DNA from: a bacterium
GTDB taxonomy: Bacteria > BMS3Abin14
Assembly (NCBI GenBank): GCA_048061075.1
Contig: JBGMRC010000002.1
Coordinates: forward strand, 1 to 27,201
Direction of reading: 5' to 3'
Length of the DNA: 27,201 nucleotides
The translations under genes and the position numbers were made by a program. Positions 3-24,395 of the stretch are shown here, piece after piece (the first letter of the stretch is position 1; each line of letters opens with the position of its first letter). The notes under the pieces are model-generated. The model was not told the origin of the DNA and searched no databases. It saw only the letters and a list, made by a program, of their open reading frames with translations.

Positions 3-797
3 GATCCGGTAGAAGTTCTACACTTTAACCGCAGCCTGGAAGAAGACGCTACCCACTATACCGGACAGAACTGCCTCGACTGCCACGACCACGCCGCAAC
101 AGTGGCCTTTGAACCTTCGGACTGTGACACCTGCCACGGTGACGGCGCCGGGAGCAACTGGCCGCAGACCGTTGCTACAACTGCCTCCATACATCCAGAT
201 CGCGCGGGGGCTCACGACAAGCACGTAACGGCGATAGAAACGGGCAACAGTTCCTGCAGAACCTGCCATCCCGGCAATCCTCCTGTCGGTCATCCGGACC
301 TGATCGCTACCGGTACTTCCCTGGCTGAACTCAGCCAGATGGATACCAACGGCGACAGCGTTGCGGATACCTGGCTTAGCACCTATATAAAGAACAGCAT
401 CGGCGCTACCGATACGGATGCCTATTATAATGTTGTTGCTCAGGCCTGCGGCAGCGTTGACTGTCACTCAGGAAGCACCACGCCTGACTGGTATAGCGGT
501 GGCCCCCTGGATTGCAACTCATGCCATTTGTCCCACCCTGGCACAGGCCAGCATAAAAAACACGCCAACACAAACATGAACTACTCCGAGTGCGACAATT
601 GCCACGGGGACGCCACGTGGTCTCCTTCCGGTAATGCTACGGGCGGCAGTGCCTACACAACCGGTGGTCCTGCAGGCAGCCCCCACAACGATGGTGTAAA
701 GACTCTCTACTTCCCTAATAATAATGCCATCTGGAACAGCCCCAACTGTACCAATGTGGACTGCCACCCCGACCCCGGGTCATACAAATGGTGGTAA
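3..797 (+). CDS. Multiheme c-type cytochrome, Geobacter-type CxxxxCH/CxxCH family (C-terminal part; gene starts upstream of the window)
   Basis: The frame is open from base 3 (DPVEVLHFNRSLEEDATHYTGQNCLDCH...), so the GTG at 102 is not the true start. The visible part has 5 CxxCH motifs (CLDCH, CDTCH, CRTCH, CNSCH, CDNCH) and 2 CX4CH motifs (CGSVDCH, CTNVDCH). Stop is TAA at 795-797. Confidence 0.92.
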   Translation, partial: DPVEVLHFNRSLEEDATHYTGQNCLDCHDHAATVAFEPSDCDTCHGDGAGSNWPQTVATTASIHPDRAGAHDKHVTAIETGNSSCRTCHPGNPPVGHPDLIATGTSLAELSQMDTNGDSVADTWLSTYIKNSIGATDTDAYYNVVAQACGSVDCHSGSTTPDWYSGGPLDCNSCHLSHPGTGQHKKHANTNMNYSECDNCHGDATWSPSGNATGGSAYTTGGPAGSPHNDGVKTLYFPNNNAIWNSPNCTNVDCHPDPGSYKWW

Positions 798-842
798 CTG
801 AGCGTTGCACAGTAAATGTTCGATTATTAGGAGATGGCTATA

Positions 843-3176
843 ATGTCGACCAGGCTGCTTAATAATATCCTGATGATGGTTCTCATCGCGACCCTTCTGA
901 ATGTGACCTCAAGTCACGGTCAAGAGGTGGTCAGGGATGAGTTCGAGAATTCGGGCTCTTCCACACAGCCTGTTCAGGGGATCCAGGGCTGGGGGTTCAC
1001 GCAGCGGACAGACGAGTTCGTCCTCGAGAATCCGGAGCTTGTGGATTACTCGATCAACCTGGGTCCGGCCGGGCAGGGGATCATCTCTTTTGACCTTATG
1101 AAGATCGAAGGGGACTTTTATGATGACCGGACGGTCTTTGCGCTTCTTGACCAGGATGAAGTACCACTCTTTGAAATGGAGATAGCGTGGAGCGCTGTCT
1201 TTGATCCAGATGTCCCAGTTGCAAACTTCAGCGGAAGGGCGTTCTACAGGGAAGGACTCAACATGTGGAGCCCATGGGTTCCACTTGACAATAAGGTCGA
1301 GCCCGGCCAGTGGGTGCACTTCGACATCGTGTGGAATGATGCCGATGAACGCTACTTTCTGTTTGTTGACAACCGTTTACAAAATCCCGGCGGCGACTAC
1401 ATTGACCACCGAACCGGCCAGGTGCAGGCCGATCCCAGGCTGGGAACTATAGCTGAAAGAATAGCCAGAGGGGAGGAGCCAGACTTCTTTGCAGGGAAAT
1501 TTGCGGATATCGCGCGGAGGGTTGCCATACTGCGCCTCGGTATACACACCGTCCCCAGTAATCCCGGTATAGGTACGTCGCCCCTTGCCAATGCTGTTCT
1601 TGACAACTTTTCCATCAGAGTGGGGCAGATGAAATTGATCTCCTCAGTTTCCCATAATGCCTTCTCCGTTGCCGGCTTTTCAGGGAGGCTGGTGGCTGGA
1701 GACACAATAACCGTTATCATGAACGGTGAGCCCGGCGGGCAGGCCACCTTTGATCTGGGTGACGGGATCACCACTGTGTCCATGGCCGAGGACCAGGCTA
1801 AGCCCGGCACCTATAGGGGAACCTACGCGGTAAAACCGGGTGACTATGTGGAATCAGGTACGCTCACTGGCCGCCTTGTAGGCAGACTGGGTCTTCGAGC
1901 TGTTCCGGTTGCCGCTACCAGAACCATCGACATCGACGGCACTACCCATTTTGATGTTAAGGCAAGTAACGACCTGATTCCCGCTGATGAAGAATCAAAG
2001 GCTGGTTTTACCGTAGTAGCGAGAGATGCCAACGATAAACCGGTTCGGGATCATGAACTTCTTCTCACCATGTCCACTACCGATGAGTACACAGGTATTG
2101 TCGGGGGAGGTGCATTTGCAGATATGGTGGGCGGTGAGATGGACGTCGACTGGGGCAGTGTGACTGACTCCTTTGGCGAGGTTTCCGCTCAATATATTTC
2201 CGGTTTCGCTGCCAAGACGGTCCTGGTAAGCGCAAAGGACATGGTTTCCGGCGATGTGGGTGTTGGTTATGTAAGGTCCTTCATTACCGGTACCGTAGAT
2301 GTTCTGGTGAAAAAGCCCCAGGCTGCGGCCCTGAGCCTCTCCGGGTCCATGGAGGTATCGTTGTCCAGGGATTGGCTCACTGCGGATGGTCATAGCCGTT
2401 CGCGCATAACAGCAGTGGTCAGGGACGAATCCGGGGACCTGGTTGCGGGTGAGCGGATCAGGTTCACTCTACTTGGTGATAATGGCTCCATAAAAGAGAT
2501 AAAGTCCCACACCGACTCTCGCGGCCGTGCTTTTGCCGATTACATAGCAGGAACTGTGATAGGTGAGGTTCAAATAGAGGTCCGTGACTTGACCGGCGGG
2601 CATGTAGCTGTGGTCTCCATCGAGCTTCGATCCGACGCTCCTGCAGAGATCGCCCTTACGGCTGAGCCCGGAGAGATATTCACCGATGACAAGACCGGTT
2701 CTGTGATAACCGCGAAGGTAAGTGACGCCAACGGCAACCCCAACTTCAACACTGATGTTCTGTTCGAAGTTGCCTCAGGCGGCGGTACCATGTCGGCGGA
2801 TAGCGCTGTAACAGATGAAAAGGACGGTATTGCCTCTGTTAATTTCCTTCCCGGCAGCGAGCCTGGTCTATCAACGATCAAGGCTACGATCATCAGCCGT
2901 GCCCCGACTGCCGATGAGGTGGCCGCTGCAGAGGGCGCCGTGTTCCTGTTTGGTTTGGATGATGACCCCGGTCGGCTTGAGGTGATTGAATGGCTCGCCG
3001 GGCCCGGTGATGAGGTAAGCGAAGGTCAGGACCTGGTTAAACTGGAAGACAGGCGTGGAACTGTCTATATGGTAAAAGCTCCCAGGGACGGTATTGCCTC
3101 GGTGTTCACGGCAGAGGAAGAGGACAGGGTAGAGTACGGTCAGACCTTGGGATACATTCTGCCTTTGGTAAAATGA
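843..3176 (+). CDS. Secreted multidomain protein: N-terminal LamG/ConA-like beta-sandwich, invasin/intimin-type Big_1 Ig repeats, C-terminal biotinyl/lipoyl-like domain
   Basis: The ORF runs 834-3176, but AGGAG at 829-833 is well spaced for ATG 843. Signal-peptide-like N-terminus (MSTRLLNNILMMVLIATLLNVTSSHG). WVHFDIVWNDADERYFLFVDN resembles LamG. Three Big_1-like units (...IPADEESKAGFTVVARDANDKPV; ...LTADGHSRSRITAVVRDESGDLV; ...IFTDDKTGSVITAKVSDANGNP). The last ~75 aa align by eye to lipoyl domains. Confidence 0.75.
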   Translation: MSTRLLNNILMMVLIATLLNVTSSHGQEVVRDEFENSGSSTQPVQGIQGWGFTQRTDEFVLENPELVDYSINLGPAGQGIISFDLMKIEGDFYDDRTVFALLDQDEVPLFEMEIAWSAVFDPDVPVANFSGRAFYREGLNMWSPWVPLDNKVEPGQWVHFDIVWNDADERYFLFVDNRLQNPGGDYIDHRTGQVQADPRLGTIAERIARGEEPDFFAGKFADIARRVAILRLGIHTVPSNPGIGTSPLANAVLDNFSIRVGQMKLISSVSHNAFSVAGFSGRLVAGDTITVIMNGEPGGQATFDLGDGITTVSMAEDQAKPGTYRGTYAVKPGDYVESGTLTGRLVGRLGLRAVPVAATRTIDIDGTTHFDVKASNDLIPADEESKAGFTVVARDANDKPVRDHELLLTMSTTDEYTGIVGGGAFADMVGGEMDVDWGSVTDSFGEVSAQYISGFAAKTVLVSAKDMVSGDVGVGYVRSFITGTVDVLVKKPQAAALSLSGSMEVSLSRDWLTADGHSRSRITAVVRDESGDLVAGERIRFTLLGDNGSIKEIKSHTDSRGRAFADYIAGTVIGEVQIEVRDLTGGHVAVVSIELRSDAPAEIALTAEPGEIFTDDKTGSVITAKVSDANGNPNFNTDVLFEVASGGGTMSADSAVTDEKDGIASVNFLPGSEPGLSTIKATIISRAPTADEVAAAEGAVFLFGLDDDPGRLEVIEWLAGPGDEVSEGQDLVKLEDRRGTVYMVKAPRDGIASVFTAEEEDRVEYGQTLGYILPLVK

Positions 3177-3177
3177 G

Positions 3178-3212
3178 TTTCAAGTTTCAGGTTTCAAGTT
3201 CCATGTTCCAGG
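3178..3212. repeat. Degenerate 7-bp tandem repeat (5 units)
   Basis: tttcaag tttcagg tttcaag ttccatg ttccagg, directly after the stop at 3176. Confidence 0.85.
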
Positions 3213-3260
3213 TACAACCAACAACAAACAACTGATCTCTCAGGATCGCCCGTCGCACGA

Positions 3261-3303
3261 CCGGTTCTACTCCGATTCTCCGGTTCGCCGTTTCCCCGGT
3301 TCA
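3261..3303. repeat. Degenerate 8-bp tandem repeat (5 units)
   Basis: ccggttct (act) ccgattct ccggttcg ccgtttcc ccggttca. Confidence 0.8.
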
Positions 3304-3335
3304 TTCATAAAATCGCGCCAGAGCTTCAGTCTCGG

Positions 3336-3382
3336 GACCCAAGACCCAGGGCCCAGGTGTTGGTCCAAGATCCAAGATCAAC
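3336..3382. repeat. Degenerate 7-bp tandem repeat (GACCCAR/GATCCAA units)
   Basis: gacccaa gacccag ggcccag ... ggtccaa gatccaa gatcaac. The 13-mer ggacccaagaccc (3335-3347) recurs as a reverse complement at 14941-14953. Confidence 0.8.
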
Positions 3383-3434
3383 TAACCGCTACACCAAATA
3401 ACCCAATCTTGCGTCATTTGCCCCAAAATACCTT

Positions 3435-3449
3435 TTCACAAATTGTGAA
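3435..3449. promoter_or_regulatory. Palindromic candidate operator upstream of the beta-barrel gene
   Basis: TTCACA-aat-TGTGAA in the AT-rich region upstream of 3627. The cognate regulator is unknown. Confidence 0.3.
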
Positions 3450-3626
3450 TAAAAACTCAAAACTAGCAGAATCCGCCAAATTATAGTAACTTACCGTGGT
3501 CTTGTTTTATATTTCTCAAGGTATGGGCATTGCACTGTCAGTTGATTGGCCGGCCCCATGTTTTTTGTCTGATGCTGTTGCAATCTAGTAACTCAAAGCA
3601 TTTTATACGGAAGGGAGTTCCTGAAT

Positions 3627-5432
3627 TTGAGGGTGGGAAGACAGTCTCTGAGCGTTCCGGTACGGGTGTTCGGATGTCTTATTTTCTCGATTCTGTTTCT
3701 CCCAGGTATCCTCCTGGCCGGAGTGCCGGGGTTTTCTATAGATAACTCCTATGAGCGGGAACAGGAATTTGTGGTCGATGACTGGGTTGTTACGGAGACT
3801 TTTGGCCAGGATTACACCTTTGACTGGGACGAGACCTTCAGTGACAGACTGGATGTGAATCTGGAGTTTAGGCTTACTATAGAAGATATTTTCAAATCCA
3901 ACGATGTGGATACCAAGGAAGTGACTCCCTCACTGGAACTGGACCTTTCAAGCATCATCTGGGATTTGGGATTCAGCGCCGAGGATACTATCGAATATAC
4001 GAACGAGTTTAACAAGGAACGAAAGGACGCTTTAGAGTTTAGCGCTGAATTGGACCTAGCTCCAGACTATTTACCCACCTTCAATGCAACATTACAGAAG
4101 CTTATCAACGAGCAGCAGAATCTGGAAGATACGAATGAGGAGAAAATAGACCTTATCACGACGTATGGATTCGGTGAGGTTATCACTCTGGATGCTTCCT
4201 ACAAAAGGGAGAAGCTGGATGACCGGCTGCTTAATAACAGCGACAAAGATCTCACGAGATGGGACTTTACGACGTCCTTTAACCAGCCCATGGCCCCCTC
4301 TTTGAAACTTAACATCGATACAACCCTGGAAGGAGAGACGGAAGATACTCTCAACAACTCAGGCCAGGTTATCCTTTCTGAGCGGTCCAGGACTCTGGAA
4401 AACAGGGCCAGGCTTACTCTAGAAACGTGGCCAAACATCAGTTCTGATCTTGAAATAACCGATGAACGGGAGTTGGTGGACGATACCGATACGATTAAAG
4501 TTGATTTCGATTTCAAGATCAGCCAGGAATTTCTTCCTATTGGAATCCTCACGGAAAGATTGGAGTTCGGAAGGGAAAGAGTAAAGAGCCCCATACCGCA
4601 GGATGATGTGAGAGACCTTGATATCGGGTTTACACTGGAATTCGCGGGCAACCCTTCAGATTATCTGGACTACTCGGTGAAACAGAGTCTTGATCTTACC
4701 GACTCGGAATTCGCCGATACTACAAAAAATACCGATACCAGGCAGCGGGATTTTGATCTTAGCATCACTATCACTCCTGCCAAAGACCTGAGCCTTGATC
4801 TTGCGTACAACAGGTCTACTGTGTACACAACAGGATCTGTTACAAGTGAGAGCAGGAGTTATAAAATTGAGCTGACCTACGAGGGGGAAGCCTTCGATTT
4901 TCCCAACCTCACCTTCAATCCTTCGGTGGAATTCTCGACGGATAACGACAGGGTCACCAACGAGACAACAGATAAACAGACCATCGACCTGGAGTTTACA
5001 TACACCTTCAATTTGCCCAAGGTCTTTGTTCTGGTGCTCGAACCGGGATATACTTTTGAGCGAACAGATGGGGTAACAGAAAATGTGGACCTCAAACTGG
5101 CATACGAAATGGCGTTTATCCTTCAACACGCCGACTGGGAGTTCTCAATTGAGAACGACGGAGAATATACGAATAACTTTGGGGCAGATGATGATTATAA
5201 CAACGACATCAGTGTCCAGATATCAGTTGGTCTTCTGGGCAATATACAGTTTGATGTGGAATACCAGTATCAGACCTCTGACGATAGTGATAACGAAGAC
5301 ACCCTTGAAGCCTCCGTGGACATGGAATTCGACAACGCGACTTTAAGTGTGTCCTACGAAAACGACAGGGCCTTCTCAACAGAGAAGGATGTGGTGAGGA
5401 CCTGGGAAGTTGAGTTCTTAATGGAATTCTAA
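3627..5432 (+). CDS. Large acidic outer-membrane beta-barrel protein (candidate porin of a porin-cytochrome conduit or export channel)
   Basis: TTG start with AAGGGAG at 3611-3617. Signal peptide (…FGCLIFSILFLPGILLA). Repeated amphipathic strands with alternating hydrophobic residues (e.g. LNLEFRLTIED, FSAELDL, YKIELTYE). Very D/E/T-rich. Ends ...RTWEVEFLMEF with a terminal Phe typical of BAM substrates. Confidence 0.75.
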   Translation: MRVGRQSLSVPVRVFGCLIFSILFLPGILLAGVPGFSIDNSYEREQEFVVDDWVVTETFGQDYTFDWDETFSDRLDVNLEFRLTIEDIFKSNDVDTKEVTPSLELDLSSIIWDLGFSAEDTIEYTNEFNKERKDALEFSAELDLAPDYLPTFNATLQKLINEQQNLEDTNEEKIDLITTYGFGEVITLDASYKREKLDDRLLNNSDKDLTRWDFTTSFNQPMAPSLKLNIDTTLEGETEDTLNNSGQVILSERSRTLENRARLTLETWPNISSDLEITDERELVDDTDTIKVDFDFKISQEFLPIGILTERLEFGRERVKSPIPQDDVRDLDIGFTLEFAGNPSDYLDYSVKQSLDLTDSEFADTTKNTDTRQRDFDLSITITPAKDLSLDLAYNRSTVYTTGSVTSESRSYKIELTYEGEAFDFPNLTFNPSVEFSTDNDRVTNETTDKQTIDLEFTYTFNLPKVFVLVLEPGYTFERTDGVTENVDLKLAYEMAFILQHADWEFSIENDGEYTNNFGADDDYNNDISVQISVGLLGNIQFDVEYQYQTSDDSDNEDTLEASVDMEFDNATLSVSYENDRAFSTEKDVVRTWEVEFLMEF

Positions 5433-5464
5433 ACGGATGAGTTTACTCGGAGAGTGAAAACTGA

Positions 5465-5484
5465 GACAGATAGATATATCTGTC
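5465..5484. other. Short perfect inverted repeat after the beta-barrel gene (hairpin or operator)
   Basis: gacagata-gata-tatctgtc: 8-bp stem, 4-nt loop, no U-tract. Confidence 0.45.
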
Positions 5485-5532
5485 AGGAAGAGTTGGGCCG
5501 AGCACGGAATTTTGTTGTGAAATCAGGTAAAA

Positions 5533-5548
5533 TGGCTCATTTTTTGCG
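5533..5548 (+). promoter_or_regulatory. Candidate sigma54 (-24/-12) promoter for the lipoprotein-NHL-TlpA-decaheme genes
   Basis: TGGCTCATTTTTTGCG: GG and GC separated by exactly 10 nt, with TTGC at -12, about 80 nt upstream of ATG 5626. Confidence 0.45.
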
Positions 5549-5625
5549 TTACGTCGGACAATTTAGTGAAGTGGCATTATTGCAGAATAAATGGTAGTGA
5601 TACTTCATCGTTCAAGGAGGACAAA

Positions 5626-6336
5626 ATGTTAAGAAGAGTCGCCCGGAAATCTGTTTTGAGCATTGCCGTATTTCTTGCCTTCGCTCTTGCCGGCTGCTCC
5701 GGTTCACCGTCAGTGAAGTCGATCAGCAAGCCGTCGGAGAGCAAGAGGCAATACCTTGGACTGAAGAAAGTAGCTATCCTGCCCTTTACTAATCTGGGCG
5801 GTGATAAAGGGGCCGAAGACCAGGCTGTGGATATCGTAAAGTTAGAGCTTAACTTGTTGGGTACTTTCCCGGAGGTAGAGAACCCTCTGTATGTAGCGGA
5901 TGTCTTCAAATCCCTGAAGATCAGGAAGCTTGACACGCTGGACCCGGAGACAGTCAAAAAACTGGGCTCGGAGATGGGGGTACAGGCGCTTCTTCTCGGT
6001 GATATCAATGCCTGGGGACTTGGGGAGGGCAGTGAAGCTGCCATGCACGTTTCCCTGACTCTAACACTTATCGACACTACTACAGGAAAGCTGCTCTGGG
6101 TCGGGAGCGGCTCACAGAGGGCAAGTTTCACCTGGGGCAGGGTTTTCGGTCTGAATGAAGGTCCCACCGATCTGGAGATCGGAAGAAAGGTAGTATCATC
6201 CCTGCTCAAGTCCATGTCCAAGGAGATCAAGCGAAGACGGGAAGCCGAAATGGTCAGAATAAAGGCGGAGGAGGCGGCAAAACTCAAGGCTGCCGCTGAA
6301 GCTGAGAAAAAGCGGCTGGAAGAACAGAAGAAATAG
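5626..6336 (+). CDS. Outer-membrane lipoprotein, PelC/GNA1162/CsgG-like alpha/beta fold, with a charged C-terminal coiled coil
   Basis: AGGAGG at 5615-5620 supports ATG 5626 (the ORF track starts at 5566). Lipobox LAGC. Motifs KVAILPFTN...LG..MGVQALLLGDI..W and VSLTLTLIDTTTGKLLWVGSG are typical of this fold. Tail EAAKLKAAAEAEKKRLEEQKK. Confidence 0.75.
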   Translation: MLRRVARKSVLSIAVFLAFALAGCSGSPSVKSISKPSESKRQYLGLKKVAILPFTNLGGDKGAEDQAVDIVKLELNLLGTFPEVENPLYVADVFKSLKIRKLDTLDPETVKKLGSEMGVQALLLGDINAWGLGEGSEAAMHVSLTLTLIDTTTGKLLWVGSGSQRASFTWGRVFGLNEGPTDLEIGRKVVSSLLKSMSKEIKRRREAEMVRIKAEEAAKLKAAAEAEKKRLEEQKK

Positions 6337-6345
6337 GAAAGAAAA

Positions 6346-7377
6346 ATGCCTTCGCATCGATTCTGCAGCATAGACCCCGCCTGGGCGGCCGGGTATCGTG
6401 GGTTTTTCAACTGGAGGACTTTCTCATTCCTGATTATCACGTTTTTTGTGATCGTTACAGCCTTGTTCCCTGGATCATACGCAACAGCCGACGGCGAAAT
6501 TGTCCTGCGTAATGACGCGGTTCCACTTTCCAGTGACCTCATAGTGGGACGTTTCGGAGTCGGCAAACTTTATTTTGATGATCCTTCCGATCTGGACACC
6601 GATGAAGAGGAGAATGTCTATATCCTGGATTCGGGAAATTACCGTATCCAGGTTATGGATGAGGATGGGGATTTCCTCAAGGAATGGGGTGGACGAGGCC
6701 TTGATGATGGCGAGTTCAGAGAGCCTGTGGCCCTGTCTCTGGATTCAGACAACGAATTTGTCTATATTCTGGACAAAGAGAGGTATCTTGTCCAGAAATT
6801 CGATCTGGATGGCAATTTTATCCTCTCTTTCGGGAAGAGAGGTATTAGAAAAGGCAGGTTCGATGATCCGGTTGACCTGACTATAGATTTTCAGGGTTAC
6901 ATCTATGTACTTGACCGTGACAGAGGCGCCATCATCAAGTTTCATTCCAGCGGCGCTTTTGTAGATGAATGGGGTGACATAGGCAGGAAGAGGGATGAGT
7001 TTTCCGATCCGGTTTCCCTTACTTTTTCCGATGTGCGTCTCGGCAGCATATATGTTCTGGACATTGGCAGAAAGGCGATCCTCAAGTTCGACAGGAAGGG
7101 AGACTACGAGGAAACAATACCACTGCTTCCTGAAGAGATTGCCGATGGAAATCCCGTTAAAATACGCTCAGACGACAGTGGAAACCTTTTTATCCTTGAA
7201 TCGAAACAGGGTAAACTGCTGAAATTAAAGGGATTCACATATAGTGTCTTCAGCCTTGTCAGTGAGAAGAACAGAATGGGAAAACCCAGTGGCCTGACCG
7301 TGGATGAAGAGGGTCGCGTCTACATCACTGACCTGGCCAAAAATAAAATAGTCAGGTACAGGATGGAACTGGAATGA
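6346..7377 (+). CDS. NHL-repeat six-bladed beta-propeller protein, exported or membrane-anchored
   Basis: Six NHL-like repeats (FDDPSDLDTDEEENVYILD, FREPVALSLD..VYILD, FDDPVDLTID..IYVLD, FSDPVSLTFS..IYVLD, GNPVKIRSDDSGNLFILE, KPSGLTVDEEGRVYITD). Hydrophobic N-terminal segment. Confidence 0.9.
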   Translation: MPSHRFCSIDPAWAAGYRGFFNWRTFSFLIITFFVIVTALFPGSYATADGEIVLRNDAVPLSSDLIVGRFGVGKLYFDDPSDLDTDEEENVYILDSGNYRIQVMDEDGDFLKEWGGRGLDDGEFREPVALSLDSDNEFVYILDKERYLVQKFDLDGNFILSFGKRGIRKGRFDDPVDLTIDFQGYIYVLDRDRGAIIKFHSSGAFVDEWGDIGRKRDEFSDPVSLTFSDVRLGSIYVLDIGRKAILKFDRKGDYEETIPLLPEEIADGNPVKIRSDDSGNLFILESKQGKLLKLKGFTYSVFSLVSEKNRMGKPSGLTVDEEGRVYITDLAKNKIVRYRMELE

Positions 7378-7814
7378 GAGAGGGTGTTTTGATGTTCCGT
7401 GTAACCAGACTACTTGTGTATTTTCTTCTGACAGTCGTAGTTACTTTTCTCACGGTGTTTGCGACAAGTTCCCTTTCCGCGGATGAAAGTGATCAGGAAA
7501 TGACACCCATCCCCATGATCAGTGGACTAGAGATGCTGAAAAAAGGGGATAAGGGACTTCAGGTGGTGGGTATTGCCATCGACGGTTCACCCATGAAAGG
7601 CGCCATCGAGGCCTTCATGAAGCAGGAGAACTTCACATTTACAGTTCTTATAGATCAACTTAATCCGGACGAGTCCTTCAAGGTTTCCGATCCATATAGA
7701 GTTGCGGGGACGCCCACCCTGTACATCATAGACAGTGAGTGGATCGTAAAGTTCGCCAACGTGGGCAGGACAACCAGGGAGAAGCTGGTAGAAGCTCTCA
7801 ACAGTATTCTCTAA
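7374..7814 (+). CDS. TlpA/redoxin-like thioredoxin-fold protein lacking the N-terminal strands and the CxxC active site (possibly an internally deleted gene)
   Basis: The C-terminal half is TlpA-like (DKGLQVVGIAID..., YRVAGTPTLYIID with cis-Pro, G.TTREKLVEAL). It has an N-terminal signal/TM segment and no cysteine in the whole ORF. The start may be ATG 7392. Confidence 0.75.
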   Translation: MREGVLMFRVTRLLVYFLLTVVVTFLTVFATSSLSADESDQEMTPIPMISGLEMLKKGDKGLQVVGIAIDGSPMKGAIEAFMKQENFTFTVLIDQLNPDESFKVSDPYRVAGTPTLYIIDSEWIVKFANVGRTTREKLVEALNSIL

Positions 7815-7838
7815 GAAAAAGCGGCTTCTGGTCCGATA

Positions 7839-9176
7839 ATGAGGAAAGCCCGTCAGCCCCATCAGAGCATAGTACAGCTTTTAATTACGGCGTCTTTACT
7901 GCTTATTATTGTCTATACAGCAGTCCCCCGGCAAGCCACCTCTGCAATAATTTCAACAGGTAAAAGAGCAATACCTTTCTCAGGTGTAGGTCTCAATAAT
8001 GAAAAGATCGATATTGAGCCTCTCATCGGCAAGGACGGGAAGGTTGCCAAGGTCATGAAGGGATATGAAGAAGAAGAAGAGCTTAAGTGGCTTCACAAAT
8101 ACATTGAAGCCCTGGTGAGCGAGACACCGATTACGCAACTTGCGGGAATAGGTGAGGAGGACGAATTCGAGATCCTCTTTCCTACTAACTTTACCAAGAC
8201 ATTTCAGGATTCCATATATGTAATTGGCATGACTCCTGAGAGCGGAGTCAAATTGACTTTAAGCCTTAACGGAGGCAGCAGGCAGGAAATAGTCTCTGGA
8301 AGGGAAATCTTCTATTTCAGGACCCCGGTTTCTCTGGGGAGCAACTATATCGAAGTCTCCAGGACCGGCCCGGACGGCAAAAAGACCAGCAGAGCAATCG
8401 TTCTCTTCCGTGAACCCAAGATGGGAAAGGGATTTGAAAGCGAGTTCCCTGTCTTCAAATTCCACATCAGGGAAAATGAGGAGAAATGTAAAAAATGCCA
8501 TGAGGTGGAACCACCCCAGACAACCGACAGAAATTTCATGATGATCACCCAGAGGTGTATGGACTGCCACAAGGAGTTGGCCGACAAGAACTACGTCCAC
8601 GGACCTATCCCTGTGGGCGGGTGTGCCCCCTGTCACGATTTCGGGTCTCTTCCTGCCCGGTATGAGCTTTTTACAACAGGATCCGATCTGTGTTACGGCT
8701 GCCACCAGGAAAAGCAGGAGGAGTTTGCCAAGTCCTTCGTTCACGGTCCTCTGGCGGCGGGCTTATGCTCGATCTGTCACAGCCCCCATGGCTCCAATGA
8801 GAAGTACAACCTCCGCCTTCCTCAGGGACAGATGTGTACAACCTGTCATCAGAAGATAAGGGAAGAGTCAGTACGCTCCAATCCCCACAAGCCCTTTGAT
8901 GAAGGCGCGTGTGCCGGCTGCCATAACCCCCATTCTTCCAATAACCCCGAATTCTTTCTGGAAGGTATGGGAGAGGATCTGTGCTTTCAATGTCATAATG
9001 AAGAAATAATGGAGGGTCATCGACATCCGGTGGGCGTTGTCCCCAATCATACTTTTCCGGGGATGAAATTAACCGAACTGGGTGAATTGATGTGCCTCTC
9101 ATGTCATAATCCTCATGCTGGAGATTCAGAAGCTCTGCTGCCCTCTAAAGGCTGTGCAGCCTGCCACGCTTATTAG
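7839..9176 (+). CDS. Decaheme c-type cytochrome (paired-CXXCH/cytochrome c3-like family) with an N-terminal non-heme Ig-like domain
   Basis: Signal peptide. Ten CxxCH motifs: CKKCH, CMDCH, CAPCH, CYGCH, CSICH, CTTCH, CAGCH, CFQCH, CLSCH, CAACH, with the HGP..G.C..CH.PH pattern of the doubled-CXXCH family. A ~200 aa heme-free N-terminal region has a beta-sandwich pattern. Confidence 0.93.
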   Translation: MRKARQPHQSIVQLLITASLLLIIVYTAVPRQATSAIISTGKRAIPFSGVGLNNEKIDIEPLIGKDGKVAKVMKGYEEEEELKWLHKYIEALVSETPITQLAGIGEEDEFEILFPTNFTKTFQDSIYVIGMTPESGVKLTLSLNGGSRQEIVSGREIFYFRTPVSLGSNYIEVSRTGPDGKKTSRAIVLFREPKMGKGFESEFPVFKFHIRENEEKCKKCHEVEPPQTTDRNFMMITQRCMDCHKELADKNYVHGPIPVGGCAPCHDFGSLPARYELFTTGSDLCYGCHQEKQEEFAKSFVHGPLAAGLCSICHSPHGSNEKYNLRLPQGQMCTTCHQKIREESVRSNPHKPFDEGACAGCHNPHSSNNPEFFLEGMGEDLCFQCHNEEIMEGHRHPVGVVPNHTFPGMKLTELGELMCLSCHNPHAGDSEALLPSKGCAACHAY

Positions 9177-9353: not shown

Positions 9354-11141
9354 TTGAAAGTGAAATCAAGAGCCCGTAAAGGGAGCCCCGGCAGACTCCG
9401 GGATAGTAGAGTTATGAAAACTCACCGCCCGAGACCGACAGGCTACATTACCCTGTTTATCCTGCTGCTTGCCATTCTGCTCCTCGCCATTATTCTGGCT
9501 TCCCTGGGACAGCGCAGCCTGAAAAGGGAAAAATCCCTCCTGCTGGATCTCAAAAGAAGACAGGCAACCCTCATGGTGAGGTCCATCGCCTCTGCTGCCC
9601 GCATCAGCACGATGATGCTGGAATCCGGGGACCGCAACCTTGTTCGTTTTGTAAATGATTCTGCCGAGTCGGAGGAGGTGCTTTTTGTCGCGCTTTACGA
9701 TAACTCCGGCCGATTTCTCACGGGTAGCCATCGTTTCATTCCCGACCTACACGGACTTTCTCTGAGGGAGCTTAACAACAGGCTGGCAGGTGCGGATGAA
9801 TCCTACGCTCTGGAGGAACTGCCCGAACTGGGCAGGTTGTTCCTTTTTGTTAGCCGGTTCAATCCTCTGGACAGTTCGTGGATACACCTCAGGATGCTGG
9901 AGATTCCCTCAATACCGGGAGTGACCGAAGAATCCGAGGAAGCTGAACATGGATACTATGTACTGATAGGAATGGACACTACAGATCTTGATGAAGCTGT
10001 GGGGGAGAGCACAAAACAGCTTCTGCTCAACGGTTTCATGTTCCTGCTCCTCGGTACGACAGGATTTTACTTCCTGATAGTGATGCAGGGCTACTTCTCG
10101 GCACGGAAAGCCCTGGCCGATGTACAGCAATACACCGTGGATGTTATCGATGGGATGGCTGAGGGACTTGTGAGCATAGACGAGGAGGGTATTATCAGGA
10201 CCGTCAATCCGGAAGCTCAGAGAATGCTCAATGTTAAATCAAAAGAAATCACAGGAAAACACTGGAGTGATTTCTTCAACGAAGATCAGTGGGAGAACAT
10301 GAGTACTCTCCTCTCAAGGGGGATGCCCTTTTACGATCAGGAAATGCCGGCGCAGGACAAAGATGGGCCCCATCTGGCCGCGACGATGATACCTGTCAGG
10401 AGTCAGGTGGGGGGCGGAGGATCGGTCCTTTTCCTCAGAGACACCGGTGAGGTCAAACTGCTGCAGGACGAAGTCAGGCGGTCAGAAAGACTGGCAGCCC
10501 TTGGCCGTCTTGTTGCAGGGATGGCACATGAGATCAGGAATCCTCTGAATTCCATACGCGGTTTCTCACAGCATCTGAGTCAACGTTTCAAGCAGGATAG
10601 CCAGGAGGGCCGTTCCATCAAGATCATAATGAAGGAGGTAGACAGACTTAACCGGGTAATTACTGAACTGCTGGATTTTTCCCGCCCCCGCGAACCGGTA
10701 CTTGAAGAACTCGATCTGAATGAAGTTGTGAGGTCAGCCGCCTCCCTGGTTGAAAGGGAGTCTATCAGTCAGGGTGTAAAAATGGTCGAGAAACTCCGGC
10801 CTGAAGGGCTTTTTATAAACGGGGATGGGGACGGTCTGAAGCAGCTTCTGATAAATCTCTTTCTCAACGCGTTCCAGGCACTGCCGGAAGGTGGAGTTCT
10901 CACGATCACCACTTCCCTGGCCAGAGATTGCGCCCAGCTGGAAGTTTCCGATACAGGCACGGGCATCACTGGCGAAGACCTGGACAGTATTTTCGAGCCC
11001 TTTTTTACGAGGAAGGCGGAAGGTACAGGTCTTGGCCTTGCCATAGTTCATAGAATAGTTCAGGATCATGGAGGAGAGATAAGGGTCTTATCTACTCCCG
11101 GCAAAGGAACGACTGTTATGGTAAAATTCCCCAAGCTCTGA
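9354..11141 (+). CDS. zraS: Membrane sensor histidine kinase, ZraS/HydH-like (2 TM, periplasmic sensor, PAS, HisKA, HATPase)
   Basis: TM1 YITLFILLLAILLLAIILA; TM2 LLLNGFMFLLLGTTGFYFLIV; PAS (VIDGMAEGLVSIDEEG); H-box GRLVAGMAHEIRNPLNSI; N, G1, F and G2 boxes. The true start may be ATG 9414. The symbol denotes family resemblance, not proven orthology. Confidence 0.85.
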   Translation: MKVKSRARKGSPGRLRDSRVMKTHRPRPTGYITLFILLLAILLLAIILASLGQRSLKREKSLLLDLKRRQATLMVRSIASAARISTMMLESGDRNLVRFVNDSAESEEVLFVALYDNSGRFLTGSHRFIPDLHGLSLRELNNRLAGADESYALEELPELGRLFLFVSRFNPLDSSWIHLRMLEIPSIPGVTEESEEAEHGYYVLIGMDTTDLDEAVGESTKQLLLNGFMFLLLGTTGFYFLIVMQGYFSARKALADVQQYTVDVIDGMAEGLVSIDEEGIIRTVNPEAQRMLNVKSKEITGKHWSDFFNEDQWENMSTLLSRGMPFYDQEMPAQDKDGPHLAATMIPVRSQVGGGGSVLFLRDTGEVKLLQDEVRRSERLAALGRLVAGMAHEIRNPLNSIRGFSQHLSQRFKQDSQEGRSIKIIMKEVDRLNRVITELLDFSRPREPVLEELDLNEVVRSAASLVERESISQGVKMVEKLRPEGLFINGDGDGLKQLLINLFLNAFQALPEGGVLTITTSLARDCAQLEVSDTGTGITGEDLDSIFEPFFTRKAEGTGLGLAIVHRIVQDHGGEIRVLSTPGKGTTVMVKFPKL

Positions 11142-11175: not shown

Positions 11176-12570
11176 TTGGCCAAAGACGATCGCAAGGCTG
11201 CTCATAAAATACTCATAGTTGACGATGAGGCTTCCCAGAGGGAACTTCTTGAAATGGTTCTTGTTGAGGAGGGTTATACAGTAGAAACCGCCGGCAGCGG
11301 TGAAGAAGCGGTAGGGAAAGTACAGGAGAACTTTTACAACATAGTTATTCTGGACCTTAAGATGGCCGGGATCGGGGGCCTCGAAGCCTTGAAGCATATC
11401 AAGGAGATCTCCCAGGCCATTCAGGTCCTGATCGTCACTGCGTATGCCAGTGTTGATTCGGCGGTGGATGCCATGCGATCGGGAGCCCTGAACTACCTGA
11501 CTAAACCTGTGGATCTGGATGAGCTGAAGGTCCTGGTGGAAAAGACCATGGAGGTCTCGGACCTTGCCGTCGAGAATGAATCCCTTCGAGCACAATTGAC
11601 CAGCAGCCTGCAGATCAGCGATATTATAGGTAACAGCCCGAAAATAATGGAAATATTCGAGACCATAAAGATAGTTGCGCCCACAGACGCGACAGTGCTC
11701 ATCCTCGGCGAGAGCGGGACAGGCAAGGAACTTGTAGCAGATGCTATTCATCGTAACAGCCCCAGGACATCACATCCCCTGATAAAGGTAAACTGCGCGG
11801 CTCTTCCGGAATCCCTGCTCGAGAGCGAGCTGTTCGGACACGAGAAGGGATCTTTTACCGGGGCTGTTTCCAGGCGTGAGGGCAGGTTCAAACTGGCAGA
11901 TGGCGGTACACTCTTTCTGGATGAGATAGGCGAGATGAGCTTCGTTCTTCAGGCAAAGCTGCTAAGGGTGATCCAGGACAAGACTTTCGAGAGAGTAGGG
12001 GGTACTGAGACTATTGCCGTGAATGTTCGACTTATAGTCGCAACCAACAAAGATCTGGACAATGAGGTTAAGGAGGGTCGGTTCAGAGAAGACCTTTATT
12101 ACAGGCTGAATGTATTTCCGATCACTCTGCCCCCTCTAAGGGAAAGGCGGGAGGACATCCCCATACTGGCCGAATACTTCCTCAATATTATTTCGGGGCG
12201 GAACAGAAAGAGGATTCGTGGTTTTTCTCCGTCTGCGATGGATCTCCTTATAAGAAATCAATGGAAGGGTAACGTCAGGGAGCTTGAAAACGTTGTGGAA
12301 AGGGCTGTGATCATGGCTCGCGGAGATCTGGTTCAGACAGAGGACCTGCCCGCCAACCTCCGCCAGGGTGAATCGGAAGAACCCGTCGGAGTGACCCCTG
12401 GCAGGCCCCTGAGTGAGGTCGAAAAAGAGGCAATAATCAGGACATTGGAGTTAACCGGCGGCAACAGGACAGAGGCTGCGAAACTCCTTGGCATCGGTCG
12501 CAGAACCCTGCAGTATAAGCTCAAAGAGTATAGGCTGTCATCCTCAGGTGAGCAAGAAGTGCGCAAGTAG
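11176..12570 (+). CDS. zraR: Sigma54-dependent response regulator (REC-AAA+-Fis HTH), ZraR/HydG-like
   Basis: TTG start with GGAGGA at 11162-11167. REC (ILIVDDE, LDLKM); Walker A GESGTGKE; [15 protein letters not shown]; GNVRELEN; [39 protein letters not shown] and RNRK.I.GF.P.AMDLLI resemble ZraR. The symbol denotes family resemblance. Confidence 0.9.
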
Positions 12571-14982: not shown

Positions 14983-15513
14983 GTGACAAAAACCGCCGAA
15001 AGAATAGCCGAAATCGCGATCGTCGCTCTTCTCGTCTTTCTCGGGATTCAGTTTCTCCCGAGTCGGACTCCCACGACCGAAATATCCATCAATATACTGG
15101 CAGGAGCCAGGGTAAAATCCATGGATCCGGTTGAATCCGCATACTTCAAAAAGGAGCTTGCGCAGGCAAGGCTGGTCGTTGACGGTGACGGCGATGCGGC
15201 CGATATTTTAGAAGAGCTTAAGAAGAAGTATCCCGGCCGCCACGAGGTCTGGGCCCTTTCGGCCCGTTTTCTGGAGGTCGAGGGAAAAAACCTGGAGGCG
15301 CTTTCACACTATGCTCGCGCGGTGCGTCTTAACCCCAACTATATAGAAGAGGATTCCCCCATTTTTCTCGGCCACAGGATAAAGAGTCTGACTAATAACG
15401 TTTTGGAGGACCTGATATTAAAAAAGAGGAGATCCGGGCTTTCACCCGGGGAATCGGAGTACCTTAAGATAGCCTACTTTCTCCGTCGGCGTATGGCAGG
15501 GGGTTGTGAATGA
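14983..15513 (+). CDS. Membrane-anchored TPR-like hypothetical protein with a C-terminal ...AGGCE
   Basis: N-terminal TM (IAIVALLVFLGIQFL). TPR-like helix pair (VWALSARFLEVEGKNLEALSHYARAVRLNP). ATGA overlap with yedE. Confidence 0.75.
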   Translation: MTKTAERIAEIAIVALLVFLGIQFLPSRTPTTEISINILAGARVKSMDPVESAYFKKELAQARLVVDGDGDAADILEELKKKYPGRHEVWALSARFLEVEGKNLEALSHYARAVRLNPNYIEEDSPIFLGHRIKSLTNNVLEDLILKKRRSGLSPGESEYLKIAYFLRRRMAGGCE

Positions 15514-16571
15514 AGTGGCTCAAAGGTGACGGTCTTCTCATAATGGCCAGCGGCCTTGCCCTTGGGTTTTTCGGGGCCGCGCTTGTCTTCTGGGGGAACC
15601 CTGCCAACTCAGGGATCTGCATCTCCTGTTTTACGGAGAACCTGGCCGGTGCGCTTGGACTGCACGCCAATACCCGCATGGCCTATCTCAGACCTGAACT
15701 TGTGGGGTTTATTGCGGGGGCTTTCCTCGTGGCCCTCGCTGGAAAAGAGTTCCGACCTCGGGCTGGCAGGCTTCCGGTTCACGGATTTATCCTCGGTGTT
15801 TTTCTCATTGTCGGTTCTTCCGTGTTCATGGGGTGCCCCATAAAGGTAATACTCAGGCTCGCTGCGGGTGACATGACGGCTCTGGCCGGTTTAGGCGGGC
15901 TGGCGGCCGGAATTTTCATCGGAATCCGCTTCCTGAAATCCGGCCTGGACCTGGGGGACGAGACTGCCCCGTCCGCACCCTTTCAGGGTGCAATAGTGCC
16001 GCTCATCTTTATCGCGCTTTTCATCCTTTCCCTGGCGGTTCCCGGACTGCTTATCAGGGGGGAAACCGGTCCCGCTGCCCATGCAGCACCCGTGGCAATA
16101 TCCCTTTCTGCCGGACTTCTGATAGGCGCACTGGCCCAGAGGTCCCGTTTCTGCGTTGCCGGGAGCTTTTCAAACCTGTTTCTGGCAAGGGATTGGAGCC
16201 TCATGAGGGGGTTGCTGATCCTTCTTGTTTCAGCGACGGCGGTCAACATCTACCTGGGTTTTTTCAGGATGGGGATGATGGACCAGCCCGGCTCCCATCC
16301 GGATCATTTATGGAACGGCATGAGCATGCTTCTTGTGGGTTTTGCGTCCGTGCTGGCAGGAGGCTGCCCCTTCCGTCAGCTGGTTCTGGCGGGCGAAGGT
16401 CTCGTTGATGCTTCAGTTGTCATAGTCGGTATGGTGGTGGGAGGCAGCATTGTTCATCTATGGCAGATAACCAGCACTGCGGCCGGACCGACACCCGCGG
16501 GGAAAGTAGCGGTCCTCCTGGGATTGATTTACTGTTTCGCAGTAGTCAGGTTCCACAGAAGGGAGGGTTGA
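15510..16571 (+). CDS. yedE: YedE-family putative selenium/sulfur transporter (YeeE/YedE)
   Basis: GNPANSGICISCF..N.AGALGLH...YLRPE..GF..G; two GCP motifs (GCPIKVILRL, GGCPFRQLVLAGEG); QRSRFC; multiple TM segments. Confidence 0.88.
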   Translation: MKWLKGDGLLIMASGLALGFFGAALVFWGNPANSGICISCFTENLAGALGLHANTRMAYLRPELVGFIAGAFLVALAGKEFRPRAGRLPVHGFILGVFLIVGSSVFMGCPIKVILRLAAGDMTALAGLGGLAAGIFIGIRFLKSGLDLGDETAPSAPFQGAIVPLIFIALFILSLAVPGLLIRGETGPAAHAAPVAISLSAGLLIGALAQRSRFCVAGSFSNLFLARDWSLMRGLLILLVSATAVNIYLGFFRMGMMDQPGSHPDHLWNGMSMLLVGFASVLAGGCPFRQLVLAGEGLVDASVVIVGMVVGGSIVHLWQITSTAAGPTPAGKVAVLLGLIYCFAVVRFHRREG

Positions 16572-16716
16572 AGATCCTCAGTAGAAACCCGGACACTCTG
16601 GCCGCCGAATCGGGATTTGGGCTCACCTTGCCAAACAGGCCTGCGGATGGTATCAGTTCGCAGGGAAACACTGTGGGATGCCCGATCCGCAATGCCCCGC
16701 CGGAGTGTAAACCGTT

Positions 16717-17892
16717 ATGACACGCAATAAATTCGTATATCTGAATAATGCAGCCACGAGCTGGCCAAAGCCCGAACAGGTAATTGAGAAAGTGTTATGG
16801 GCCTTGCGGGAGCTTTCCTCCACCCCCGGAAGGGCGGGGTATTCGGCCCTTCAGGGTGAACGGGAGATATTCGAGACAAGGGAGGAGGTGGCGCGGCTTA
16901 TCGGCGCCCAGGACAGTTCGCGGATAATATTTACCTCCAACGCCACACAGGCACTGAACCTTGCCATCACGGGTTTTCTCAGGGAGGCCTGTCACGTAAT
17001 TACGACCTCCATGGACCACAATTCTATTGTAAGGCCCCTCGCCAGAGCTGAAGATGAAATTGGTGTGGAGGTGACACGCGTTCAGGCCGACGAAAAAGGC
17101 ATGGTCGGGGTGGGCGCGGTAACAGAAGCGATCACTCCCCGAACCAGACTGATCGTTCTGACCCATGCATCCAATGTCGTCGGATCCATACAACCCGTGG
17201 AGGAAATATGCGGTGCACTGGGAACCAGCGATGGGGTTCGGCCGGTTGTGCTGGTAGATGCCGCTCAAACAATTGGTGTTCTTCCACTGAATGTGGCCAA
17301 AACGGGGATCGATCTGCTAGCCGTACCGGGTCATAAATCCCTGTATGGACTTCAGGGAACAGGCTTTCTGTACATTGCTCCGGGAGTGGATCTCGTACCC
17401 ATTATTGAAGGAGGTACAGGAGGGCAGTCAACCCTTGTCAGGCAGCCGGAGGTACTCCCGGAAAAGTTCGAGGCCGGCACTCCGAACACGCCGGGAATCG
17501 CGGCGTTGGGAGAGGCCATCCGTTTTATACATTCACGGGGGATCGACAACATCAGAAACCACGAACAGAAGCTTATTGAGATCCTCATTGAGGGTCTTTC
17601 GAAGATCCAGGGGGTTGTTCTGTATGGGCCCGCCTCTCCCGATGAGCGGGTAGCAGTCCTTTCCTTTAACGTAAAAGATCTTGATCCTGCCGAGGTGGAG
17701 TCGTTTCTGGAGCAGACCAGGAGCATTCAGTTACGAGTTGGCCTGCACTGTTCTCCCATGTCCCACAGGACCATTGGAACATTCCCTGAAGGTACTGTTA
17801 GGGTGAGCCCCGGGATTTTCAGTACAGAAGAGGATGTCCTTTCCCTCGTGGAGGGGGTACGGGAGCTTCAGAAGTTCAGGAGGAAAGATTGA
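16717..17892 (+). CDS. Cysteine desulfurase/selenocysteine lyase family, class V aminotransferase
   Basis: YLNNAATSWPKP; FTSNATQALN; THASNVVG; DAAQ; PLP lysine in PGHKSLYG; FEAGTPN; catalytic loop RVGLHCSP. Confidence 0.92.
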   Translation: MTRNKFVYLNNAATSWPKPEQVIEKVLWALRELSSTPGRAGYSALQGEREIFETREEVARLIGAQDSSRIIFTSNATQALNLAITGFLREACHVITTSMDHNSIVRPLARAEDEIGVEVTRVQADEKGMVGVGAVTEAITPRTRLIVLTHASNVVGSIQPVEEICGALGTSDGVRPVVLVDAAQTIGVLPLNVAKTGIDLLAVPGHKSLYGLQGTGFLYIAPGVDLVPIIEGGTGGQSTLVRQPEVLPEKFEAGTPNTPGIAALGEAIRFIHSRGIDNIRNHEQKLIEILIEGLSKIQGVVLYGPASPDERVAVLSFNVKDLDPAEVESFLEQTRSIQLRVGLHCSPMSHRTIGTFPEGTVRVSPGIFSTEEDVLSLVEGVRELQKFRRKD

Positions 17893-18215
17893 ACGCTGAT
17901 CCAGGATCCTCTCGGGAAACCTCCTCAAACTCCTGTGTGGCTGTGTTTAAAACGACCCACCTGACCCTGAAGGCGGAAAAAGCGCTCAAAGATACCGGAG
18001 TCGAGCACCGTACAGTCATGAAGCCGCGGAAGATAAGCAGTGACTGCGGCCTCGCGATACGGCTGGATCCCTCCGATGTGGACAGGGCGAAGGATGTTTT
18101 TCTCAGCTCTGCCTGCCTGCCTGCCAGGATCTTTCACCTGGTTGGCAGGGAGTGGGAGTGTATGATGGAAGTGGATTCTGAGAACCTTTCAGGAACAGTG
18201 ATCCGGGAGTGGTGA
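17889..18215 (+). CDS. DUF3343-family protein (selenium/sulfur-cluster associated)
   Basis: F.TTH.TLKAEK.LK..G......KPRKISSDCGLAIR matches the DUF3343 pattern. TTGA overlap with the desulfurase stop. Confidence 0.8.
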   Translation: MNADPGSSRETSSNSCVAVFKTTHLTLKAEKALKDTGVEHRTVMKPRKISSDCGLAIRLDPSDVDRAKDVFLSSACLPARIFHLVGREWECMMEVDSENLSGTVIREW

Positions 18216-21902: not shown

Positions 21903-21953
21903 TTCAGCAACGGACTGCAACTGAACTGATCGATATTTTTTTGGAGGTGCTTT

Positions 21954-23147: not shown

Positions 23148-23175
23148 TGATCCCGTTAAATCGGGGAGGTAACTG

Positions 23176-24387: not shown

Positions 24388-24395
24388 AGGAAGAT

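Follow-up and report, generated by a model that had tools for sequence, protein, structure and literature searches.

Many bacteria rely on porin-cytochrome conduits for electron exchange with minerals and electrodes, and research has covered only a few types of them. MtrAB, PioAB and MtoAB belong to this class, whose existing diversity is illustrated by predicted conduits such as PCC3. Related combinations of proteins occur in the Uet cluster of Ca. Tenderia electrophaga, which joins a barrel, NHL proteins and multihaem cytochromes (bioRxiv 10.1101/2022.05.06.490989), and in the osc (omcS-companion) cluster of Geobacter sulfurreducens, which has multihaem cytochromes together with propeller and channel/lipoprotein components (PMC13194489, citing Shen et al. 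2025). Here we analyze a run of seven envelope genes at bases 3-9176 of a bacterial contig of 27,201 nucleotides (JBGMRC010000002.1, assembly GCA_048061075.1, lineage BMS3Abin14). This stretch, hereafter the window, is one entire contig of a 1.69-Mb metagenome-assembled genome (MAG) with a completeness of 78%. Five of the seven genes form a cassette that is a real, conserved and uncharacterised variant of the porin-cytochrome theme, recently thioredoxin-deleted in this genome. The new points are this double deletion and the existence, on a distant metagenome contig termed L025, of a thioredoxin-free layout that retains the two genes upstream of the cassette.

The conserved five-gene core and its upstream partners

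Seven consecutive open reading frames (ORFs), all on the forward strand, are present within bases 3-9176 as the initial annotation had described them, and the translations show the N-terminal signals, lipoboxes or anchors that it had claimed as envelope-targeting sequences. The last five constitute the core, in which the gene for an acidic outer-membrane beta-barrel (3627-5432) is followed by genes for a basic lipoprotein (5626-6336), a periplasmic NHL-repeat beta-propeller (6346-7377), a thioredoxin remnant (7374-7814) and a decahaem c-type cytochrome (7839-9176). The order of the core is barrel, lipoprotein of ~240 aa, NHL propeller, thioredoxin of 191-196 aa and thioredoxin::decahaem fusion of 510-550 aa, and it is kept in all eight distinct loci of relatives that were read through the end of the cassette (L002, L003, L005, L006, L008, L021/L022, L104 and L105), in one of which, L105, a TPR protein takes the place of the lipoprotein. 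The core cassette was also recovered by BLAST in G001 and G011, which are of the same phylum, and the barrel is present in seven of the 16 species genomes of the phylum in the collection. The MAG itself carries a single cassette copy and about 15 ORFs with at least four haem motifs. The cassette was seen in hydrothermal-vent and sediment metagenomes and in MAGs labelled Deltaproteobacteria, Deferrisomatales and others. The barrels of L021/L022, L104 and L105 are remote members of the family, with 14-21% identity to the window barrel. Synteny, named beforehand as a point on which the initial annotation could fail, holds for the five-gene core even with barrels less than 20% identical, and it bears out the picture of a conserved envelope gene set around a decahaem cytochrome and a large barrel with components unlike those of MtrCAB. 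In all loci read, the barrel and decahaem genes are inherited together in one cassette but are not adjacent.

The whole seven-gene type of order, minus the thioredoxin gene, recurs on L025. This contig and L024 came from a metagenome scan with the fusion alignment keyed on haem-motif patterns, which returned mostly generic paired-CXXCH cytochromes; a locus search with a narrow barrel alignment gave only two close relatives, both already known. L025 encodes a GSu_C4xC__C2xCH cytochrome in the same position as the window cytochrome at 3-797, a Big_1/lipoyl protein (L025:1346-4333) with 32% identity over 558 aa to the window Big_1 protein (E 5e-75), a barrel that hhalign matches over its full length (probability 98.2%, E 2.8e-14), a GNA1162/LpoB-like lipoprotein, an NHL protein and a ten-haem cytochrome with neither a thioredoxin domain nor a separate thioredoxin gene. 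Because L025 repeats the layout, the gene arrangement is not a product of chance, and because it keeps the rest of the module without a thioredoxin, the thioredoxin parts are optional. They are dispensable in two lineages, that of the window and that of L025.

The barrel, previously described as an acidic protein of ~600 aa, proves to have 601 aa, an isoelectric point (pI) of 4.05, 21.5% Asp+Glu, a signal peptide and Phe as its last residue. Its AlphaFold 2 (AF2) model is all-beta with about 28-30 strands, at low confidence (pLDDT 64.7). The MtrB barrel has 26 strands, and the cassette barrel, at ~30 in the model, may have more. The family is small: it forms 19 clusters among 5.8 billion proteins, and a profile search of 1.84 billion gave 42 representatives. 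The lipoprotein has a PelC/GNA1162/LpoB-type alpha/beta domain that follows the lipobox LAGC, and it ends in a ~55-residue Lys/Glu/Ala-rich C-terminal helix; its pI of 9.6 makes it basic where the barrel is very acidic. The model of this protein (pLDDT 80) is closest to PelC, followed by GNA1162, LpoB and CsgG, in agreement with the earlier PelC/CsgG-like label, and against the PelC entries 5t0z, 5t10 and 5t11 Foldseek gave an E of 1e-11, a TM score by target of 0.75-0.81 and an identity of 14-18%.

The third core gene encodes, as annotated, an NHL propeller, an ordinary six-bladed one with an N-terminal signal or anchor. It is conserved in every cassette copy read through its position, and its top NCBIfam match is the PEP-CTERM protein ScyF, far under the cut-off. 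Among ~80 unrelated metagenome loci fetched via paired-CXXCH motifs, about half have a nearby NHL gene and ~15 a PelC/LpoB-like lipoprotein gene, from which it follows that both accessory classes travel widely with this cytochrome superfamily. An assembly or secretion role for the lipoprotein and the propeller, as the initial annotation envisaged, is something that we can only infer.

Upstream of the core lie the genes for a multihaem c-type cytochrome (3-797), present as its C-terminal 264 aa, and for a secreted Big_1 protein of 780 aa (834-3176). The cytochrome fragment is built of CxxxxCH/CxxCH modules, with five CxxCH and two CxxxxCH motifs, and matches the CxxxxCH/CxxCH domain model TIGR01904 at 30.2 bits against a cut-off of 27; it is a candidate outer-surface cytochrome. 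Because the first base of the window is also that of the contig, the assembly lacks the 5' part of this gene, and the retrieval of the full cytochrome that had been suggested did not succeed, as no other contig of the genome resembled, by BLAST, the N-terminal part of a relative's giant cytochrome. That relative is G011 (L109:4108-9765), where a cytochrome of ~1880 aa lies directly upstream of the Big_1 gene and carries ~35 haem motifs (28 CxxCH, 4 CxxxxCH and 3 CxxxCH). It shows 31% identity to the window fragment across 191 aa and offers a hint of how long the truncated gene may be. The Big_1 protein had been called a secreted LamG-Ig scaffold. The Ig part of this description stands, with two Big_1/Invasin_D3 Ig domains, while the LamG label for the N-terminal ~260 aa found no support, there being no Pfam match and no significant PDB sequence match (best E 0.63). 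The protein ends in a Biotin_lipoyl-like domain, a lipoyl/biotinyl-like barrel-sandwich (window 2940-3176), and this is also kept in the distant L025 orthologue, making it a stable feature of this family of secreted Big_1 proteins. Within the phylum, the gap between the Big_1 and barrel genes ranges from 0.45 kb in the window through 1.3 kb (L007), 1.8 kb (G011) and ~6 kb (G001) to 8.6 kb (L003), and no Big_1 protein was seen in the 5.4 kb of upstream contig in L002 and L005. The upstream pair is a recurrent yet separable partner of the five-gene core, and this variable spacing had been overlooked.

Thioredoxin modules and their in-frame deletions

The decahaem cytochrome (445 aa) has ten CxxCH motifs, in line with its initial annotation, and paired-CXXCH domains, and it consists of a signal peptide, an N-terminal thioredoxin remnant, an Ig-like domain and an MtrA/DmsE-like ten-haem domain. 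A search with the full-length L006 relative shows homology between the haem domain and MtrA from the solved Mtr complex (PDB 6r2q_A, E 1.3e-11), and on the DmsE-family model TIGR03508 the decahaem scores 128.8 bits, under the cut-off of 192.2. The initial annotation overlooked that this cytochrome derives by deletion from a thioredoxin::decahaem fusion. The fusion family comprises 568 proteins at E <= 1e-10. Among the matches listed, 120 of 120 come from metagenomes or MAGs, and about 110 are full-length thioredoxin::decahaem proteins with a CS[ST]C motif (CSSC or CSTC). The FGSIYCS[ST]C segment and the cis-Pro loop of the fused domain are nearly invariant across these ~110 listed clusters. 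In relatives, the stand-alone thioredoxin has a CEPCKxE motif and a match to ResA (4nmu, E 1.8e-20); the fused domain also matches ResA best, and both modules have the TlpA/ResA fold. The product of 7374-7814 was initially termed TlpA-like, which is correct as to its thioredoxin fold, but alignment with full-length relatives identifies it as a deletion derivative, 146 aa in length, of a ResA-like thioredoxin. CxxC is absent from both modules in the window, where ORF 7374-7814 contains no Cys and the Cys residues of the decahaem are those of the haem motifs only.

The genome of the window recently lost both thiol-redox parts by clean in-frame deletions mediated by repeats. Relative to L006, the thioredoxin gene is missing 165 bp in frame at the junction 7549|7550, and the corresponding block in L006 is flanked by TAAGG direct repeats. 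This deletion amounts to 55 residues, including FWSIFCEPC, the CEPC active-site segment. The decahaem gene is missing 267 bp in frame at the junction 8024|8025, a block bounded by two 9-bp ATCGGCAAG repeats, which amounts to 89 residues that include FGSIYCS(S/T)C and most of the thioredoxin domain. Relatives as close as L006 and P0067 (82-89% identical at the protein level) retain the full length, and the deletions are therefore recent. All five core genes are open in the window despite both CxxC deletions, with no frameshift or stop.

The deletions were also followed in other assemblies. Logan contig L009 is 100% identical to the window over 9415 bases and probably comes from the source sample; no contig of an independent sample was seen to bridge 7549|7550. 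The junction at 8024|8025 is spanned by one contig of an independent sediment run (X6). In the vent runs X3 and X4, an abundant strain, ~87% identical, diverges from the window exactly at both junctions, and where it breaks off at the decahaem junction, its loose ends agree with the undeleted sequence of L006. The same two runs contain low-depth contigs near-identical to the window in which a further 105 bases (7998-8102) are skipped in frame across the thioredoxin remnant of the decahaem, which suggests either continuing erosion of the remnant or an independent, larger deletion.

The window is in this respect a natural experiment, in which both thiol active sites are gone and the rest of the cassette is kept, in the same type of habitat as full-length strains. 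With such a natural double deletion, a role of the thioredoxins in maturation as opposed to electron transfer becomes directly testable.

A hypothetical conduit mechanism and its rivals

We put forward a hypothetical mechanism, drawn from homology, size and synteny, in which the region would be one copy of an outer-membrane electron-transfer module, an MtrAB-like porin-cytochrome conduit with accessory proteins and with the thioredoxins as dispensable helpers, a proposal that we hold with about even confidence. We propose that the MtrA-like ten-haem domain would run through the very large, acidic barrel or dock inside it, like MtrA in MtrB, while the N-terminal Ig domain of the decahaem and, ancestrally, also its thioredoxin domain would stay in the periplasm. 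The PelC-like lipoprotein may provide a collar or anchor on the periplasmic face of the barrel, the NHL propeller may be a periplasmic scaffold, and the upstream CX4CH/CxxCH cytochrome and the Big_1 protein would be likely partners at the cell surface, in the role of MtrC or OmcB. The ResA-like (CEPC) thioredoxin and the fused CSSC/CSTC domain would be accessory, most probably keeping the CxxCH cysteines of the apocytochromes reduced for haem attachment. We regard the thioredoxins as maturation helpers because no product of the cassette other than the cytochromes is rich in Cys, because the free thioredoxin is ResA-like and because a second cytochrome cluster of the same genome has a redoxin of its own. 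This second cluster, on contig C26 (L111:3771-9750), encodes tetrahaem c3, 15-haem, 5-haem and 11-haem paired-CXXCH cytochromes together with a Redoxin-TPR protein, a CcmH-like TPR protein and an adjoining histidine kinase and sigma-54 regulator. The genome also carries ResB and CcsA-type maturation genes. Electron flow in such a conduit could run in either direction, toward reduction or toward uptake.

Several points weigh against the conduit. The barrel was rejected as a member of the MtrB/PioB family, as PF11854 had no match at E <= 0.1 in any of 25 barrel family members, NCBIfam (TIGR03509 included) gave no match to the barrel, and the family profile found no PDB sequence match. Structural comparison by Foldseek and VIA-align retrieved generic large barrels only (LptD, TonB-dependent receptors, SprA and MtrB), which yields no family assignment; MtrB shares the best VIA-align Z of 15.1 at a root-mean-square deviation of 13.5 Å and a TM score of 0.49, the level of generic large barrels. 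The barrel and cytochrome genes are three genes apart, unlike mtrAB. A complex prediction for barrel residues 32-601 and haem domain residues 196-445 scored 0.00, which is no answer and gives neither support nor refutation. As for the helper role of the thioredoxins, CcdA/DsbD, the electron supplier for a ResA-like protein, was not found in the genome at its 78% completeness, and the near-invariant fused CS[ST]C domain could make thiol chemistry central rather than accessory. The pairwise ratio of nonsynonymous to synonymous substitution rates (dN/dS) versus L006 is 0.07-0.27 over the five genes, with the minimum in the haem domain (0.07) and the maximum in the thioredoxin remnants (0.27), values that mostly reflect the time before the deletions and so are weak evidence of continued constraint. 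Finally, the cassette is known from sequences of uncultured organisms alone.

The same components could be arranged as a secretion or assembly machine, an explanation that we consider unlikely. The barrel and a ring of the PelC-like lipoprotein would then form a translocon, resembling PelBC or CsgG, that carries the multihaem cytochrome, the Big_1 protein or both to the surface, the NHL propeller would be a chaperone-like scaffold, and the decahaem would be cargo or a periplasmic donor and not a wire inside the barrel. Such a translocon accords with the best structural match of the lipoprotein, PelC, which rings beneath the PelB barrel according to the title of entry 9h80, with the recurrence of the Big_1 protein and the giant cytochrome as neighbors, and with the frequency of NHL and PelC/LpoB-like genes near paired-CXXCH genes in unrelated loci. 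It also has parallels in the Uet cluster with its barrel, NHL proteins and cytochromes, and in the osc cluster of Geobacter, where the assembly of OmcS is proposed to involve NHL/beta-propeller proteins together with channel-like lipoproteins (PMC13194489). However, the cassette is without an ATPase or other energy source, and the candidate cargo genes are not always adjacent to it, given that they were not seen in the 5.4 kb of upstream contig in L002 and L005. The filament-forming cytochrome of the initial annotation likewise went unsupported, since the Pfam and NCBIfam scans of the window named no OmcS, OmcE or OmcZ family and there is no peptidyl-prolyl isomerase (PPIase) gene of the OscH/UetB kind, OmcS itself never having been searched directly.

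The thiol modules can also be read as more than helpers. In an ancestral thiol-haem coupling, which we consider quite unlikely, the periplasmic CS[ST]C domain would trade electrons with haem 1 and the ResA-like protein would serve as a relay, so that periplasmic dithiol/disulfide or sulfur-compound chemistry would be tied to an extracellular donor or acceptor and the window copy would be a disabled or repurposed derivative. The near invariance of the FGSIYCS[ST]C segment and cis-Pro loop speaks for such a coupling, as does the joint loss of both thiol modules in the window lineage, which is what a functional pair predicts, and by analogy with MtrA in 6R2Q the N-terminal domain would be at the periplasmic end of the wire. 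If the coupling were true, extracellular minerals or electrodes could oxidize or reduce periplasmic thiols, and the double deletion in the window would represent a natural uncoupled mutant coexisting with full-length strains in vent communities. On the other hand, the stand-alone thioredoxin matches ResA, a maturation factor with the same CEPC-type motif, thioredoxin-free L025 retains the rest of the module, and the window cassette has remained without a frameshift or stop after the loss of both CxxC segments. To our knowledge, direct electron transfer from a disulfide to haem without a flavin or quinone has little precedent, which also counts against it. That the genes are neighbors without a shared function, with the barrel and lipoprotein acting as an export pair for polysaccharide or other material (TIGR03016-like and PelC-like) beside periplasmic cytochromes, is highly improbable. 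TIGR03016 PEP-CTERM-associated barrels are among the structural and feature neighbors of the barrel, and to the NHL match to ScyF can be added the response regulator downstream of the cassette, which scores 430 bits on the NCBIfam PEP-CTERM regulator model with its cut-off of 502.6. Against this, the barrel family is always accompanied by the decahaem gene in contexts read through the cassette, across very deep divergence, and the window scans turned up no pel gene and none for a glycosyltransferase or exosortase.

Flanking genes and comparison with known systems

Immediately downstream of the cassette, the domain scans identified a PAS histidine kinase (9354-11141) and a sigma-54-dependent response regulator (11176-12570), both on the forward strand. 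The pair is kept as neighbors of the cassette inside the phylum, while other lineages have a GAF-GGDEF protein there instead, as does the close relative L006; the kinase and response regulator may be regulators of the cassette. A sigma-54 promoter search gave 8 matches versus 10.9 expected by chance. A sigma-54-like -24/-12 motif with two mismatches (TGGCTC-N5-TTGCG, 5533-5548), not above chance, lies in the spacer between the barrel and lipoprotein genes, which is 194 bp in the window versus 32-44 bp in distant relatives. Neither the scans for sigma-70 promoters and terminators nor a search for tandem repeats in the 450 bp preceding the barrel gene (3177-3626) gave anything exceeding chance; this spacer contains several short tandem repeats of 7 to 16 bp (AGTTTCA x3.6, TCCAAGA x2.3 and a 16-mer x1.9). 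Farther downstream, a sulfur/selenium handling run (14983-18215) encodes a TPR protein, a Sulf_transp membrane protein, a class-V aminotransferase (cysteine desulfurase-like) and a Se/S carrier-like protein, and is followed by FAD synthetase. It is succeeded by aroE (19161-20039) and then by pilB, pilT, pilC, pilS and pilR, the last cut at its 3' end, at 20109-27199. We take this order to resemble that of the Geobacter type IV pilus locus, in which case the pilin gene would presumably fall past the end of the contig.

The module is conserved in many uncultured lineages. We found no paper that describes its component set, and a literature search for a thioredoxin-fused decahaem returned none. 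With MtrAB, PioAB and MtoAB it shares an MtrA-homologous paired-CXXCH decahaem, a very large outer-membrane barrel and a candidate surface multihaem cytochrome nearby. It differs from them in that its decahaem has an Ig-like domain and, ancestrally, a thioredoxin domain, and in that genes for a lipoprotein, an NHL propeller and a ResA-like thioredoxin sit between those for the barrel and the cytochrome. As the barrel lies outside the MtrB/PioB family and the cytochrome falls under the curated DmsE-family threshold, we do not count the cassette as a member of the MtrAB/PioAB/MtoAB group.

The cassette barrel lacks a TPR domain and looks far larger than that of PelB. Like PelBC (PDB 5T0Z/5T10/9H80), the cassette has a lipoprotein that superposes on PelC and whose gene comes after that of the barrel, but this lipoprotein is basic and not acidic, it has a long C-terminal helix and low identity to PelC, and the window has no PelB-like TPR-barrel protein and no pel synthesis or glycosyltransferase genes. 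The thioredoxins of relatives resemble ResA/CcmG in fold and, for the stand-alone module, in its match to ResA and its CEPCKxE motif; unlike ResA/CcmG, one cassette module forms a single protein with its presumed substrate and bears the unusual CS[ST]C motif, and in the window both modules are without an active site. The osc and Uet clusters share with the cassette the theme of cytochromes, a propeller and channel/lipoprotein components, a likeness at the level of general protein classes. They differ from it in that the window scans named no OmcS-type family, tri-haem c7 or PPIase, OmcS itself not being searched, and the descriptions of them consulted here make no mention of a thioredoxin-fused decahaem. 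The component set for which we found no published description combines a giant barrel outside the MtrB family, a PelC-like lipoprotein, an NHL propeller and an MtrA-like decahaem with a fused thioredoxin.

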